IMG/VR virus record: IMGVR_UViG_2751185961_000008
DNA: 9,328 bases
Reading direction: 5' to 3' (one strand)
From: a virus
Taxonomy: Duplodnaviria; Heunggongvirae; Uroviricota; Caudoviricetes
This document shows positions 2,938 to 9,328 of this stretch, piece after piece; the first letter of the stretch is position 1, and the number at the start of each line of letters is the position of its first letter. A program made the translations under genes and the position numbers. The notes under the pieces were generated by a model that had not been told where the DNA came from, made no database searches, and was given only the letters and a program-made list of their open reading frames with translations.

Positions 2938-3618
2938 CTATCGCCATTGCTCCCCAAATACAAAACCAATTTCAGCCAGTGCCTCGTCCATTTTTTCGAT
3001 GAACTCCGGTACCATTTCGTCAAAAACCTCCATGTATTTTTCATCCCGTTCGACCACGACATAATGCAGGCCTTCACGCTTCATACGCGGGTCATAGTTG
3101 GCAAAGTACCAGGCATCTTTTCGCGTCACCCACATGCTGTACTGCACCTGGGCCATGTAAGCCGACTTTATGGCCTCGAAACCACCGAGCCGGAATTTCA
3201 TGAAATCCCGGGAGGTAAACGGGCATTTCAGTTCAAGGCCGTTGCCGTCACTGCATAAACCATCGGGAGAGCAGGCGGTGCGCATACTTTCGTCGCGATA
3301 GATGATCGGGGATTCAGTAACATTCACGCCGGAAGTGAACTCAAAGAGGGCTCTGGCGTCGTTCTCGTACTGTTTTCCCCAGGCCAGCGCTTTAGCGTTA
3401 ACTTCCGGAGCCACACCGGTGCAAACCTCAGCCAGCAGGGTGTGGAAGTAGGACATTTTCATGTCAGGCCATTTCTTTCCTGAGCGGGGTTTTGCTATCA
3501 CGTTGTGAACTTCTGAAGCGGTGATGACGCCGAGCCGTAATTTGTGCCACGCATCATCCCCCTGTTCGACAGCTCTCACGTCGATCCCTGTACGTTGCAG
3601 GATAATGTCCGGTGTCAT
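2938..3618 (-). CDS. exo: lambda-type Red exonuclease (Exo / Red-alpha), 226 aa
   Basis: Protein [65 protein letters not shown]...FVFGEQWR is near-identical over its full length to my recollection of phage lambda Exo. The start overlaps the bet stop (ATGA), as in lambda. Confidence 0.95.
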
Positions 3619-4400
3619 GCTGCTACCTTCTGCTCTGTGACTTTCTGTTTCAGGAATCCAAGAACCTTCACAGCTTCAGCCTGTGTTAGTTCTGAAGATG
3701 TGTAAATGTTGCGGCGAAAAATCCGGGAACAGAGCGGCAACAGGTCGTCATCCCACGTTTTTTCCATGGAAGTAAGAAGGGCGTTAATTTCCGACATGGT
3801 TTCTTCGTTAACCGGGGTGATGTCGCGTTCCGGCTGACGTTCTGTAGTATATGCAGTATTTTCGACAATACGCTCGGCTTCATCCTTGTCATAGATGCCA
3901 GCAAATCCGAAGGCCAGGCGAGCACACTGAATCATGGCTTTGTGCCGTAACATCCGTTTGGGATGCGACTGCCACGGTCCGGTGATTTCTCTGCCTTCGC
4001 GGGTTTTGAATGGTGCGCGGCGACATTCATCCATCCACTCGGTAACGCAGATCGGGTGATTGCGATCTTTGCGGTAAATCCGGCATGTACAGGACTCATT
4101 GTCCTGCTCAAAGTCCATGCCATCAAACTGCTGGTTTTCATTGATAATGCGGGACCAGCCATCAACGCCAACCACCGGAACGATGCCGTTCTGCTTGTCA
4201 GGGAAGGCGTAAATTTCTTTCGTCCAGGGATTAAGGCCGTACTGGTTGGCGACGATCAACAATGCGATAAATTGCGCATCGCTGGCATCACCTTTAAATG
4301 CCGTCTGGCGAAGAGTGGTGATTAGTTCCTGTGGGTCGACAGAATCCATGCCGACACGTTCAGCCAGCTTCCCTGCCAGCGTTGCGAGTGCTGTACTCAT
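3615..4400 (-). CDS. bet: lambda-type Red single-strand annealing protein (Bet / Red-beta), 261 aa
   Basis: Protein [100 protein letters not shown]... matches lambda Bet in length and sequence. Gene order gam-bet-exo is conserved. Confidence 0.95.
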
Positions 4401-4405
4401 CCGTT

Positions 4406-4702
4406 TTATACCTCTGAATCAATATTAATTTGGTGACGGGCGATGGTTTCAGCCATGTAGCGGATGTGTTCTGCCATGCGTTCCTGAAAATCGACATCGT
4501 CATCAAATGCACGGGAAATAGCTTTTTTGCTGGCCCCGTGACGTTGCAGATTATCGATGCATAGCGATTCAAACAGGTGTTGGGGCAGACCTTTTTCCAG
4601 GTCGTCTGCCAGCTCAGCTTCAGTTTCTTCACGGGCAATTTGCTGGTAGTGTCGTGCCCATGACTGCTCTTCAATGCGATCGGGGATAAGCCAGGCATTC
4701 AT
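4406..4702 (-). CDS. gam: Gam, RecBCD inhibitor, short (GamS-length, 98 aa) form
   Basis: Protein [98 protein letters not shown] matches the C-terminal 98 residues of lambda Gam. The start codon overlaps the stop of the upstream 690-aa gene. No in-frame N-terminal extension equivalent to the 138-aa GamL is available. Confidence 0.9.
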
Positions 4703-6771
4703 GATTTATCACCTCCGAAATTTTCAAGCCTGTTGGCAATCATGATGGCGATATCAGGGATTGCTGGCGCTGTGGCTATACATGCGGGGTTGGCGCACAA
4801 ACCATAGACGGCGGCAATCACGAGCTGTCTTTTCCAGTCGAGAGTTACTGGCTCAGAATTGGCGTCATCGCCGGACGTATCACTGCCTGGCTCGTTCTGA
4901 ACAACGGTTTCGCCCTCCTGAGCGGCATCAACAGAGTTTTCCTGAATGATCTTCTCCTCAGTTTGTGCTGAGTCTTCTCCATCAGCGGCGTCATTTTCTC
5001 CAAAAGTTTCTGTGTAAGTGCTATCGCCCATTACCGCACTACAGTCAGGGCAGTTACCCCCGCCAGTCTGACCACAGACGCGGCAGTTTTTTTCCAGCTC
5101 CGGTTGCGCTACTGGCCCTGGCTGTTGCTCTTCTGGCCCGTTTTGTTGCGTATCCGGGCTGTTTTGTCCCGCTTCTGGGGCAATTTGTTCCACTTTGGAC
5201 TGATTCTGGTCCTCAGTGTCGCGAGTCTGGATCCCCTTCACCCACTTCGGATCAGCAGGGTTACTGATGCCTTCAACGAATTCTCCACGCGAGGCAGCCA
5301 GTAATTTGTCGGCATCGACTGGATTTTTTGGGGGGATGTTTTCCCTGGCTTTATTGAGTTCCTCCCTCAGTTCCTGGTATTTCGTTTCTACAGATGAGAC
5401 ATTTTCCAGTGATTGCGTGTCCTCATTATGTTTAACTGGAATTTCTTCCACTGATTCAGGCGCTGCCTGTTCATTAGCCATTGTGTCCGATGCTTGTTGC
5501 TTTTCTTCATCGCCATGTTTTCCTTCTGCTGTTCCGCGCTGCGGCATCGGTGCTGATGAGCGACCGCAGGCAATTTCCACGATTTCCGGATCCGGGTTAG
5601 CGTGATCGGTTTCGGTCAACACTTTGTTGAGATATTCAGTCACGCGTGCCGGGATGGCCTCAATGCCGATTGGTGCATCTTTCACGGAAGCCACCACAAT
5701 GGCGCGGGAATAATCCAGCCCACCGGGCATGGCGATAAATTTGTCGCGAAAAACAGAAAAGGGCGGCTTATTCTCTGACACGATTTCTTCAACGCGTTTT
5801 GCGTGTGCTGGGTGCAGGTTATAAATATCCACATCCATTGAACGGGCCAGAACGCCGGTGGCTACATCTCGTGCGAGTGATGTCTTATCATGTTTGAATC
5901 CTTCACCACGATCGGTAATATTTCCGCCGCCAGCGTTAGCACCGGAAGGCGTACGGGTAATGCCTGAAACATAATTTCCGTTCTGCCATTCTTTTGTCAG
6001 CAGGCCCTGATCAAGGTAGTCAGTTTTCATCCAGGTGGAAATGAACTTGTCGAATTCAGCCGGGCTGATGCGATGATTTGCAGAGTGGGGGAATGCTTTC
6101 CCTACAGATTCAGTCAGGCGACTAAGGTGATAGTTCGTCAGTTTATCCAGTTCATGATGCGCGGCGCGCACAGCAGTAAGCAGGCTCTGAAGGTAACTGT
6201 CCTCTGTGTCCATCTCCATACGGATCACGTTATTGCGTTGTTCTGGTGTGGCATGATGCCGGTATTTTCCATCTTCATCTTTGCTGAATAAGAAGAGGTG
6301 AAGGAAGCGATGAGTAAGGCTCAGAGTGGCGACGGGAATTTCACACTCAGAACAGTCATCGTCGCTGTCCGGGGATTCGCTTTTCTCCACATCATCCGGA
6401 ATAGTTCCGTCCAGGTTATCGTTGTCATCGCCAGCAGTTGTGGCATCTTCACCGTTGATGTTGTCATCGAAGGGGATAGCCATCATGGTGATGCCATCGT
6501 TACCGCCTTTTTCATAGCGGTTGCAGAATTCAGTATCAAACACGCCTTCCGGTGGAAGGTCATTCACGACGGGGAAATTTACGCGAACGGGTTTTTTGAA
6601 ATCATCCTCGTCGTAGCCTGCATCGTCCATGGCTGCAATGCAGCGGGAAACTGCGACAGAAAGTTTTCTGGCCTCGGTCCAGAAAAAACCGCCTTTGATG
6701 CCAAGGCGTTTTCTGACTTTATCGTTTTTTGCTTCGCAGTGTAGTGCAAAAGTCTGTTTATCAGCGCTCAT
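4699..6771 (-). CDS. large (690 aa) highly acidic hypothetical protein with a CxxC-x(n)-CxxC zinc-ribbon-like motif; function unknown
   Basis: Uninterrupted 2073-nt ORF in pL-operon orientation, translationally coupled to gam. It contains long Asp/Glu-rich low-complexity stretches (for example [43 protein letters not shown]; [49 protein letters not shown]) and the motif [16 protein letters not shown]. All plus-strand ORFs inside it are in alternate frames. Confidence 0.8.
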
Positions 6772-7265: not shown

Positions 7266-7348
7266 TTTGATTTTTCCGTGATTGATAATTAATGCGGTTT
7301 TATTTCGGCTTGTCTGTTACAGATATGGAAGGTGTATTTTATTACTCG

Positions 7349-7570
7349 TCACAACGACGCTGCTTTTACGGGTAAGCCATCGCGCCCGATGAAAACTTTA
7401 ATCATGCAGTCGGTAATGCATGTTTTTGTTGTGAAGTTACGAATATAGAGTTTTCTCTTTTCAATATTGTTTGCTGAAGCGATATATGTCCGACCTTCAT
7501 GAAGAACATAATCGCCAGGCGTCACGCACTGACGTGGTATTTCATCAGTTCCGAAGTGATGAGCAATCAT
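7349..7570 (-). CDS. hypothetical small protein (73 aa from the ATG at 7570; ORF-track GTG start at 7588)
   Basis: [76 protein letters not shown], with GGAG 6 nt upstream of the ATG at 7570. The upstream GTG and ATG lack an SD. Function unknown. Confidence 0.45.
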
Positions 7571-7744
7571 AATTATCTCCATTTTCACAAATGAACTTTG
7601 TTGATGCGGTGCCTGGTGCCTCCAGGTGACGTTAACCAGTTAACAACTAACGCCGGGTCAGGGGACGATGACTTTCCGTGACATCCTGTCGGTTTAACTG
7701 TTCCGCGTGCGCATAGCCGCATTCACCGCATCACAAAATTCACT

Positions 7745-7787
7745 TTAAAAAGGGCGGACATCAGCAATCGGCAAACCGATGTCCGCC
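7745..7787 (-). terminator. rho-independent terminator for leftward transcription inside the 440-bp non-coding spacer
   Basis: Perfect 10-bp inverted repeat GGCGGACATC ... GATGTCCGCC with a 15-nt loop. On the minus strand it is followed by CUUUUUAAAG; on the plus strand there is no T-tract after the stem. Confidence 0.55.
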
Positions 7788-8026
7788 AAGGGCTACACAC
7801 AGCAATGTTGTTATTCACAACCGGAAGCGCACGGTCGAAGAAATCTAACGACAAGCCTTCAATGGGAAAGAGTCTTCGCCGTGCACTTTCGTGTTGTACC
7901 CTGGCTTTCAGGGTAATGTCTGTTCAGTAAACTGAGAGTGCCGGAACTTACCCGTGTCCGGCGCACGATCTCCACCTCACCCGTGGAGAACTCCTCAACT
8001 ACAAACCCCGTAAGGAGAGTGAATTT

Positions 8027-8236
8027 ATGACACAAGAAGAAAAAGTGATGTTTCTGATGCGGCTGGCTGTCGATACCTACAACACACAATTCAGGGAGAA
8101 AGATATACCTCAAAAGGCAGTTCCTGCCGCGGTAGATAAGGGCGGTGCTATTGCCGTATTTTACGATGCATTTGAATCATTTTTTAATGAAAAACTCGAC
8201 GCTGTTAGCGGCTTCGGAACATCGAGTAATAAATAA
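8027..8236 (+). CDS. hypothetical small protein (69 aa) encoded opposite to the surrounding pL-direction genes
   Basis: ORF MTQEEKVMFLMRLAVDTYNTQFREKDIPQKAVPAAVDKGGAIAVFYDAFESFFNEKLDAVSGFGTSSNK, with a strong SD (TAAGGAGAG) about 8 nt upstream of the ATG. It is preceded by about 440 bp without convincing ORFs. Its 3' end overlaps the 3' end of the convergent ORF 8205..8564 by 32 nt. Confidence 0.55.
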   Translation: MTQEEKVMFLMRLAVDTYNTQFREKDIPQKAVPAAVDKGGAIAVFYDAFESFFNEKLDAVSGFGTSSNK

Positions 8237-8564
8237 CGTTCATTACGGTTCTTAAACAACAATCAGTGGGCTTGATGTTGTTCTTTTCAAGCTCACTTGC
8301 CATCACTTCCATTATTCTTGCACTTACACGAATTATTTGGTGGCTGTAAGCGATGCAACTGTCGCTGATATTGCTGTTTATTTCTATTACTTCATTTTCA
8401 CCATTAGCATCAACTTCGGATGCGCTGTTTTCATTATCCTGTTTCAGTGCTTTTTCTGCCATCTGGATGCGTGTCAGCGTTGCGGAATTTGGGCTAAGTC
8501 GATAAACCTGTCTGGCATCTTCCAGAAGCAGGGCGATAATGTGCTTCAGTTCTGTTTCGTTCAT
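8205..8564 (-). CDS. hypothetical protein (119 aa from the ATG at 8564; ORF-track start at 8585 is probably TTG)
   Basis: ORF MNETELKHIIALLLEDARQVYRLSPNSATLTRIQMAEKALKQDNENSASEVDANGENEVIEINSNISDSCIAYSHQIIRVSARIMEVMASELEKNN..., with GGAG 6 nt upstream of the ATG. It lies 31 bp downstream of ORF 8596..8844 on the same strand, consistent with a two-gene operon. Confidence 0.5.
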   Translation of the reverse strand: MNETELKHIIALLLEDARQVYRLSPNSATLTRIQMAEKALKQDNENSASEVDANGENEVIEINSNISDSCIAYSHQIIRVSARIMEVMASELEKNNIKPTDCCLRTVMNVIYYSMFRSR

Positions 8565-8982: not shown

Positions 8983-9328
8983 GGTAATGACTCCAACTTA
9001 CTGATAGTGTTTTATGTTCAGATAATGCCCGATGACCTTGTCATGCAGCTCCACCGATTTTGAGAACGACAGTGACTTCCGTCCCAGCCTTGCCAGATGT
9101 TGTCTCAGATTCAGATTATGTCGCTCAATGCGCTGAGTGTAACGCTTGCTGATAACGTGCAGCTTTCCCTTCAGGCGTGATTCATACAGCGGCCAGCCAT
9201 CCGTCATCCATACCACGACCTCAAAGGCCGACAGCAGGCTCAGAAGACGCTCCAGTGTGGCCAGAGTGCGTTCACCGAAGACGTGCGCCACAACAGTCCT
9301 CCGTATCCTGTCATACGCGTAAAACAGC
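8983..9328 (-). mobile_element. IS1 family insertion sequence, divergent variant, partial (right-end terminal repeat at 8983; element continues beyond window end)
   Basis: Sequence from 8983 (GGTAATGACTCCAACTTACTGATAGTGTTTTATGTTCAGATAATGCCCGATGAC...) matches the reverse complement of the IS1 right terminus and insB region as recalled, with scattered substitutions (roughly 10 percent by eye). The terminus lies 15 nt beyond the insB stop, as in IS1. Confidence 0.9.
8998..9328 (-). CDS. insB: IS1 transposase InsB reading frame (C-terminal part; frame continues open to window end)
   Basis: Translation ...[109 protein letters not shown] matches IS1 InsB with a few substitutions. The ORF-track start at 9291 is an internal GTG, not the real start. 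Confidence 0.85.

Follow-up and report, generated by a model that had tools for sequence, protein, structure and literature searches.

The closest described relative of the locus analyzed here is KilS of Escherichia coli K-12, a 98-nt RNA predicted from RIL-seq data for Hfq (Bar et al. 2021, PMC8175672). This RNA is stable and Hfq-dependent, accumulates in stationary phase and appears to have its own transcription start site; yncL is a RIL-seq partner, and KilS has only three RIL-seq interactions and no demonstrated regulatory effect (PMC8175672). In the literature that we searched, KilS is named as a small RNA in this single paper and is never linked to RprA. The kilS gene (ncRNA b4833, 98 nt) of the K-12 Rac prophage lies directly upstream of kilR, and in the Qin prophage of K-12 dicF lies upstream of dicB at the same distance. 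RNase III yields a second, 72-nt form of DicF (PMC5069750), and kilR of K-12 is expressed by read-through when NusG is low or depleted (PMC10798246). The processed form of RprA comprises the last 47 nt of this RNA and coexists with the full-length RNA in vivo (PMC9262595).

The window, i.e. the whole stretch of 9,328 nucleotides that was analyzed, comes from the early-left (pL) operon of an E. coli lambdoid prophage. Its positions 7300-8500 show 99.8% identity with several E. coli chromosomes; for Escherichia phage PhiR5_2, a related phage that encodes N upstream, the value is 99.2%. The leftward gene order in these records is N, a 237-aa gene, a 119-aa gene, a gap, kil, a 128-aa gene, a RecE-family exonuclease gene, gam, bet, exo, and int. 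The start of kil was assigned to ATG 7570 on the annotation and on the match of its product to NF008465 (154.9 bits against a cut-off of 92, residues 1-72 of 73); phrog_294 matches with an E value of 8e-36, and kil is annotated in records L001 and L002. GTG 7588 was considered as an alternative start and rejected on the annotation and the extent of the NF008465 match. With kil beginning at ATG 7570, a spacer of 456 bp (7571-8026) separates it from a 69-aa open reading frame (ORF) on the opposite strand.

Comparison with the K-12 loci suggests that this spacer is most probably a stack of minus-strand RNA elements belonging to the early-left operon (Table 1), a judgment that applies jointly to a small RNA, a terminator acting as a gate, a structured leader and an independent 69-aa gene. 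Homology, synteny, structure and coding selection are established for this explanation. What seemed an empty spacer can thereby be annotated as three elements, all of them left blank by genome pipelines; the annotation under the match reads "None" in thousands of E. coli genomes.

Table 1. Coordinates of the features in and around the spacer upstream of kil
Feature	Positions	Strand	Basis or remarks
kil, FtsZ-inhibitor gene, 73 aa	7349..7570	-	NCBIfam NF008465; phrog_294; annotated
Structured STnc100-like 5' leader of kil	7571..7746	-	Long stem, 7745-7723 with 7606-7584
KilS-family small RNA gene, ~92 nt	7747..7838	-	Covariance model, blastn, K-12 synteny
Intrinsic terminator, likely Hfq-binding 3' module (predicted)	7747..7787	-	13-bp stem (10 perfect), then C, U5
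Single-stranded seed ACAUUGCUGUGUGUAG	7793..7808 (7808 to 7793)	-	Unpaired in centroid fold
Conserved block common to KilS-type and DicF-type loci	7839..7899	-	86% matches, many E. coli genomes and phages
Candidate -10 (TAGATT) of small RNA promoter	7842..7847	-	Aligns with K-12 extended -10 TGTTAAATT
Block travelling with the 69-aa gene family	7900..8026	+	Occurs in L126 and L130, lacking in Rac, POCJ13 and mEp460; plus-strand fold z -2.0
Weak plus-strand promoter candidate	CTTTCA 7905-7910, TAAACT 7928-7933	+	Putative role
Candidate anti-SD hairpin	CUCCU 7991-7995 with AGGAG 8013-8017	+	Could mask the SD
Small gene, 69 aa	8027..8236	+	phrog_2605, E 2.8e-44, residues 1-69 on profile 1-69/69
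Convergent early-left ORF, 126 aa	8205..8585	-	phrog_2982, E 6e-77; 119 aa in L001 annotation

Probable small RNA gene and its terminator upstream of kil

On sequence grounds, the segment 7747-7838 is a homologue of KilS of the K-12 Rac prophage and belongs to a known but barely studied small RNA family. We built a covariance model on 11 KilS-type sequences, leaving out the variant of the window itself. This model matches the window with 79.1 bits (E 1.9e-16) over all of its 92 positions, while it gives 33.9 bits for DicF, 24.4 bits for the POCJ13 variant and 15.2 bits for RprA. By blastn, the segment is 81% identical to K-12-type copies over 93 nt (E 1e-14), and it occupies the place homologous to that of kilS in Rac. 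The 5' end of the predicted RNA (7838) was set by alignment to the mapped 5' end of the K-12 RNA. An Rfam covariance scan of the spacer, recommended in the earlier note, was partly productive: at gathering thresholds there was no match in the window or in eight variant loci, whereas a permissive scan returned three minus-strand matches, all below their gathering scores, to STnc100 (7556-7750), DicF (7752-7801) and RprA (7743-7854). These sub-threshold matches are explained by the K-12 RefSeq genome, in which kilS precedes kilR and dicF precedes dicB.

The window and K-12 Rac loci share several characteristic features: (i) the small RNA gene is located ~175 nt upstream of kil on the same strand, (ii) the seed core is common to both, and (iii) so is the terminator scaffold. 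They differ in the first ~10 nt of the 5' segment, where the window has UCGACC in place of GUGGGA, in the hairpin loop, which is shorter in the window, and in the candidate -10, which in the window lacks the TG of its K-12 counterpart. Moreover, the host element of the window is an N-type lambdoid phage rather than Rac, and the opposite-strand neighbour is the 69-aa gene rather than sieB.

The likeness to DicF of Qin (RF00039) is one of architecture. In both cases a seed and a GGCGG-hairpin scaffold lie in a prophage operon and are followed by a conserved leader and a division inhibitor, and an upstream block is common to the DicF and window loci. However, the window scores 29.5 bits (E 2.7e-4) on the DicF model against a gathering score of 48, its seed is unrelated to that of DicF, and ~110 nt of the DicF precursor are missing from it. 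KilS of K-12 itself scores 39.1 bits on this model. Three-way and five-way alignments revealed the design that these loci share: an upstream block, a short variable seed, a GGCGG...CCGCCC-U5 terminator, a near-invariant leader of ~175 nt, and a division-inhibitor gene.

The 10-bp perfect stem of a leftward terminator described earlier is present (7753-7762 pairs with 7778-7787), and C and U5 (7751-7747) come next on the minus strand. The 56-nt 3' module folds as RNA with -23.9 kcal/mol (z = -4.9), and 0 of 200 shuffled sequences fold as well; the fold is thus well beyond chance. A scan for simple or consensus terminators missed this hairpin only because its loop exceeds 8 nt. Among 25 distinct homologous hairpins that were folded, 24 form one continuous hairpin, with energies from -13.6 to -24.1 kcal/mol. 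Their inner stems vary (CAUCAG/CUGAUG, UACCAG/CUGGUA, UGGCAG/CUGACCA and AUAUCAG/CUGAUAU), and compensatory changes in these stems are seen by eye, sequence by sequence. Formal covariation in the MAFFT and model-fitted alignments, which modelled only the invariant parts of the stems, is weak, with one modelled pair showing double changes.

The hairpin is therefore read differently than in the earlier note, in which it was placed to silence the 69-aa gene: the same terminator and leader precede kil in POCJ13, where this ORF is absent. The leftward terminator is the 3' end of the predicted small RNA and probably a gate before the toxic kil gene, not a device against the 69-aa gene, and the small regulatory RNA that the earlier note named as a fallback idea corresponds to the minus-strand KilS-family RNA that this terminator ends.

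The following scheme is consistent with these features. A small RNA of ~92 nt (7838 to 7747) would be made probably from a weak promoter of its own, by processing of pL transcripts, or by both routes. It would end at the strong intrinsic terminator and have a DicF-like architecture, with the seed directly 5' of the GGCGG...CCGCCC-U5 hairpin, and in this form it would bind Hfq. Since the 5' end of processed RprA has this same seed, the RNA should pair in trans with host mRNAs. The terminator would also insulate the toxic FtsZ inhibitor gene kil, which would be reached only by read-through. The expression of the spacer elements, their binding to Hfq, their targets and their control by read-through are predictions of this scheme.

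As to a promoter, the candidate -10 of the window lacks the TG of K-12 TGTTAAATT, no -35 is evident, and the scan gave no consensus promoter; activity of the aligned -10 of the window is thus putative. Just upstream of it, within the conserved block and on the operon strand, there is a short hairpin with a GNRA-type loop, CAC-GAAA-GUG (7884-7893, minus strand), which reads CGC-GAAA-GCG in L126, L130 and Qin, a compensatory change.

Seed and its likeness to processed RprA

The last 14 nt of the seed ACAUUGCUGUGUGUAG are identical to the first 14 nt of processed RprA, and the seed core is the most conserved block of the Rfam RprA consensus. Smith-Waterman scores of KilS against RprA are 36-40, compared with a shuffle mean of 14.1 (sd 2.2), and 0 of 2000 shuffles reach this level. 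In the processed 47-nt form of RprA (RF00034), as in the window RNA, AUUGCUGUGUGUAG is an identical single-stranded 5' end immediately before a terminator hairpin. Beyond this segment the two RNAs differ. The window scores 29.7 bits (E 0.26) on the RprA model against a gathering score of 70, the common core being only 14-19 nt long, and it has neither the 5' stem-loops nor the three-stem architecture of RprA. The motif AACGAAUU, which we take to be the rpoS-pairing motif of RprA, is not intact in the window, where it reads AACAACAUU. The terminators are different as well, and the window RNA is phage-borne, whereas RprA is encoded by a core gene.

The 16-mer seed occurs in at least 120 viral contigs, a seed-selected set in which seed invariance by itself proves nothing; among these loci, the 5' parts and the hairpins diverge, giving 25 distinct terminators. 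The unbiased sample for seed conservation consists of the 80 closest Kil loci. The 14-nt seed core is exact in 34 of them and has one mismatch in another 34, 4 loci carry a different seed on the same terminator, and 6 are unresolved.

These distributions bear on the alternative that the hairpin is a mere tL-type operon terminator, overridden by N, and that the KilS-like sequence is a relic that is never released as a small RNA. Such a reading would agree with the -10, which is degenerate relative to K-12, with the presence of N in the related phage, and with the few partners of K-12 KilS. We nevertheless regard it as improbable: the seed is exact or has a single mismatch in 68 of the 80 closest Kil loci, it persists in the seed-selected loci where the 5' parts and terminators diverge, the K-12 homologue is a stable, Hfq-dependent RNA, and by the precedent of DicF, processing alone can release an RNA of this kind.

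A KilS-family small RNA remains the preferred reading, and its seeds appear, from the comparison of loci, to be exchanged on a common scaffold. In POCJ13, the terminator (a 98% identical stretch) and the leader are near-identical to those of the window and the seed is different, while in L010 the KilS seed is joined to a DicF-type upstream scaffold. The kil and dicB loci have one modular design in common, in which an upstream block, an exchangeable seed, a terminator, an RNase III-type leader, and a division inhibitor are arranged in series. Other seeds observed on the same terminator and kil or dicB leader are AUCCAUGUAUCAAUAUCCUCUUU in POCJ13 (L133 850-945) and ACCCAUGUUGAUUACCUUUU in L130 (3613-3695); therefore, at least three or four seed types exist on one scaffold in related phages.

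The pattern of the KilS-type seed followed by GGCGG was found in E. coli, E. ruysiae, Shigella flexneri, Citrobacter braakii, and Trabulsiella, with one genome per species, and also in two metagenome-assembled genomes assigned elsewhere. In three loci of viral contigs (L076, L084, and L098, the first two from contigs of ~266 kb), the 16-mer stands before unrelated terminators and the sequences resemble rprA of other enterics; these matches are below the Rfam RprA gathering score.

As a tentative extension, for which we claim less than even confidence, lambdoid prophages of Escherichia, Shigella, Citrobacter, and Trabulsiella may carry a family of small RNAs built on the DicF scaffold with cassette-like seeds, in which the KilS-type seed, being that of processed RprA, would enable the prophage to mimic this 3' form of RprA or to compete with it. 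If this is true, the prophage could tap the host regulon of RprA, the transcription of which is under the Rcs envelope-stress phosphorelay, from lysogeny and independently of pL. The link between an RprA seed and a DicF scaffold appears to be unreported and may be new. The RprA-identical seed also suggests, in concrete and testable form, what KilS may do and how cryptic prophages may be linked to host stress regulons.

Several candidate targets were evaluated. DicF-like targeting of ftsZ was rejected: the duplex of seed and ftsZ has -13.7 kcal/mol, and 253 of 300 shuffles are as good. A search of the rest of the window for complementarity to the seed found none. Pairing of the seed alone with yncL is barely above that of shuffles (21 of 500 as good), and duplexfold of the whole RNA against yncL was discarded, as it yields long duplexes that are meaningless. 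In yncL of K-12 (L132 12196-12240 and 12060-12100), the 5' UTR carries ACUAUACACA...GCAAUG, a stretch with complementarity to the KilS/RprA seed; the most favourable duplex computed for yncL, however, is located just past its stop codon. RprA would pair at the same sites.

The opposite-strand 69-aa gene and the region upstream of it

The 69-aa ORF described in the earlier note is present at 8027-8236 on the plus strand, with an ATG start and a strong Shine-Dalgarno sequence (SD), AAGGAGAG at 8012-8019, whose GGAG lies 9 nt 5' of the ATG. The annotation of a 99.8%-identical UPEC chromosome bears out that it is the sole plus-strand gene among leftward genes, and the spacer has indeed no credible ORF, as related records annotate none there. 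In RefSeq the product is a hypothetical protein, and in the PhiR5_2 phage record the ORF is unannotated. Fifteen homologues were found. Members that are 57% and 47% identical have an intact reading frame and likewise lie on the opposite strand in this slot, ahead of kil or of dicF-dicB. The overall dN/dS is 0.38-0.45, and the invariant N-terminus (codons 1-16) has 2-5 synonymous versus 0-1 non-synonymous changes. Thus, judged by sequence comparison, the ORF is a genuine and independent gene, because it has a full-length phrog_2605 match, slot-conserved homologues and a signature of coding selection. The protein has no match in Pfam, NCBIfam or PADLOC. AlphaFold gives a two-helix model with a pLDDT of 62, too uncertain for a fold search.

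The slot in which this gene resides is variable. Among 127 seed-bearing loci, it holds sieB in 47 and a member of the 69-aa family in 14, and in the rest mostly neither, the two kinds of loci being separated by tblastn; in some loci that lack both genes, a ydaF-like gene is directly upstream. Thus, small RNA and kil form a constant module to which the plus-strand gene is variably added. SieB of Rac has the same position and orientation relative to kilS and kil and is likewise convergent with the operon; however, the 162-aa SieB has no sequence similarity to the predicted two-helix protein of 69 aa. The 69-aa gene sits in a variable opposite-strand 'moron' slot, occupied by sieB in Rac, and adds a conserved small protein to it; since the slot holds sieB in Rac, the gene is a candidate for a lysogen-expressed function. 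In phage mEp460_ev081 (L134 589-789), a different 66-aa opposite-strand ORF (MTKEEFVSYIFDKTVEMY...) occupies the same slot upstream of a true dicF-dicB pair; its N-terminal pattern is as in the 69-aa family, and hhalign is only suggestive (probability 18%, E 1.4e-3).

The earlier note had proposed that the ~440-bp spacer comprises the promoter and long leader of the 69-aa gene, with the terminator set for silencing by the early-left operon, so that lysogens would express the gene and induction would shut it off. Several observations stand on its side. The orientation is real and the geometry of antisense crossing by pL transcripts is correct, the 3' end of the ORF and the convergent 126-aa ORF have 32 nt in common, the exclusion gene sieB occupies the same slot in other loci, and 7900-8026 co-occurs with the ORF family. 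As an account of the spacer, we consider this reading unlikely, since homologues of the terminator, seed, and leader exist without a plus-strand gene (POCJ13 and ydaF-like loci) as well as upstream of dicB, and a scan of the spacer found no consensus plus-strand promoter. A plus-strand start near 7935 would give a leader of ~90 nt. At least 7571-7838 consists of minus-strand elements, with or without the plus-strand gene, and the claim of a ~440-bp leader is not retained. Expression of the 69-aa gene in the lysogen and transcriptional interference stay plausible on account of the pL antisense geometry, the 32-nt overlap and the sieB slot in Rac; geometry is the sole basis of the interference model.

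For the 69-aa gene as an independent add-on, the relevant upstream region is probably 7900-8026, which may hold its promoter and 5' UTR, as this block accompanies the members of the ORF family. On the plus strand of the spacer, the scan detected no sigma-70 consensus promoter, and the hexamers given in Table 1 are a weak candidate. With a transcription start near 7935, the true leader of the gene is probably ~90 nt rather than 440 nt long. A predicted hairpin could, more speculatively, mask the SD of the 69-aa gene.

Between ydfC and dicF, Qin of K-12 likewise carries the block associated with the 69-aa gene (window 7900-8010; L004 2070-2190); the ORF is missing there. The homology of the Qin block begins exactly at the SD of the ORF. 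By this comparison, Qin looks like the product of a deletion that removed the ORF and a 201-aa gene and kept the upstream region of the ORF.

The structured leader of kil and predicted read-through into it

The RNA from 7746 to 7560 folds with a minimum free energy of -64.2 kcal/mol (z -3.65), and 0 of 200 shuffles are as good. Its closing stem of ~22 bp between AAGUGAAUUUUGUGAUGCGGUG and CACCGCAUCAACAAAGUUCAUUU agrees with the STnc100 model. The leader is near-invariant before kilR and dicB in K-12, and the gap between the terminator and the kil ATG, 176 nt in the window (7747 to 7570), is 175-176 nt in 59 of the 72 Kil loci measured. The inverted repeats noticed earlier in the spacer were all located, namely the GTTAAC-CA-GTTAAC palindrome (7631-7644), CCTGG/CCAGG (7613-7627), and GCCGGA/TCCGGC (7941-7962); the first two of them are parts of the conserved kil leader.

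The segment 7556-7750 aligns with the whole STnc100 model (RF02076, positions 1-206 of 206), including the long closing helix and the CACCUGGAGGCACCAGGCACC hairpin, and shares with STnc100 a prophage context. It differs in its score (31 bits, E 8e-5), which is below the gathering score of 47, and in being a 5' UTR that runs into the kil start codon and has no terminator of its own. The leaders in Qin and Rac of K-12 are sub-threshold on this model as well, with 34.4 and 28 bits, respectively. The Pas small RNAs (PasA-D), of which PasD is related to STnc100, were considered and set aside, as they come from late/structural regions and not from this locus (bioRxiv 10.64898/2026.05.13.724894).

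A read-through transcript would traverse this 176-nt STnc100-like leader. By analogy with DicF, the long closing stem is a probable RNase III site, since a cut ~19 nt past the terminator would fall there. N-modified pL transcription or reduced Rho/NusG activity could supply the read-through, and in this N-type phage the former is the expected route to kil.

That the whole of 7571-8026 is purely a cis-regulatory leader of kil (Rho loading, antitermination or RNase III control) and yields no trans-acting RNA is the least probable of the alternatives, in spite of the highly structured leader, the read-through control of kilR and the local hairpins in the conserved upstream block, because cis control has no need for a strong intrinsic terminator in mid-region or for a seed shared with RprA, K-12 KilS is recovered on Hfq in chimeras with another RNA, and the upstream region (7844-8026) folds no better than shuffles on the minus strand (z -0.9).

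An IS1 copy is located at window positions 8984-9328, with the terminal repeat GGTAATGACTCCAACTTACTGATAG... and a transposase ORF at 8998-9291 on the minus strand. It breaks the 237-aa early-left gene, of which UPEC-245U has an intact copy. In the genome of the window, the insertion thus cuts off pL and N from kil and the small RNA, and expression of the latter, if any, would need its own promoter or read-out from IS1. Further along the operon, the window contains tandem recombination modules (2938-6771), which comprise a RecE-family exonuclease of 690 aa and a complete lambda-type gam, bet, and exo set.
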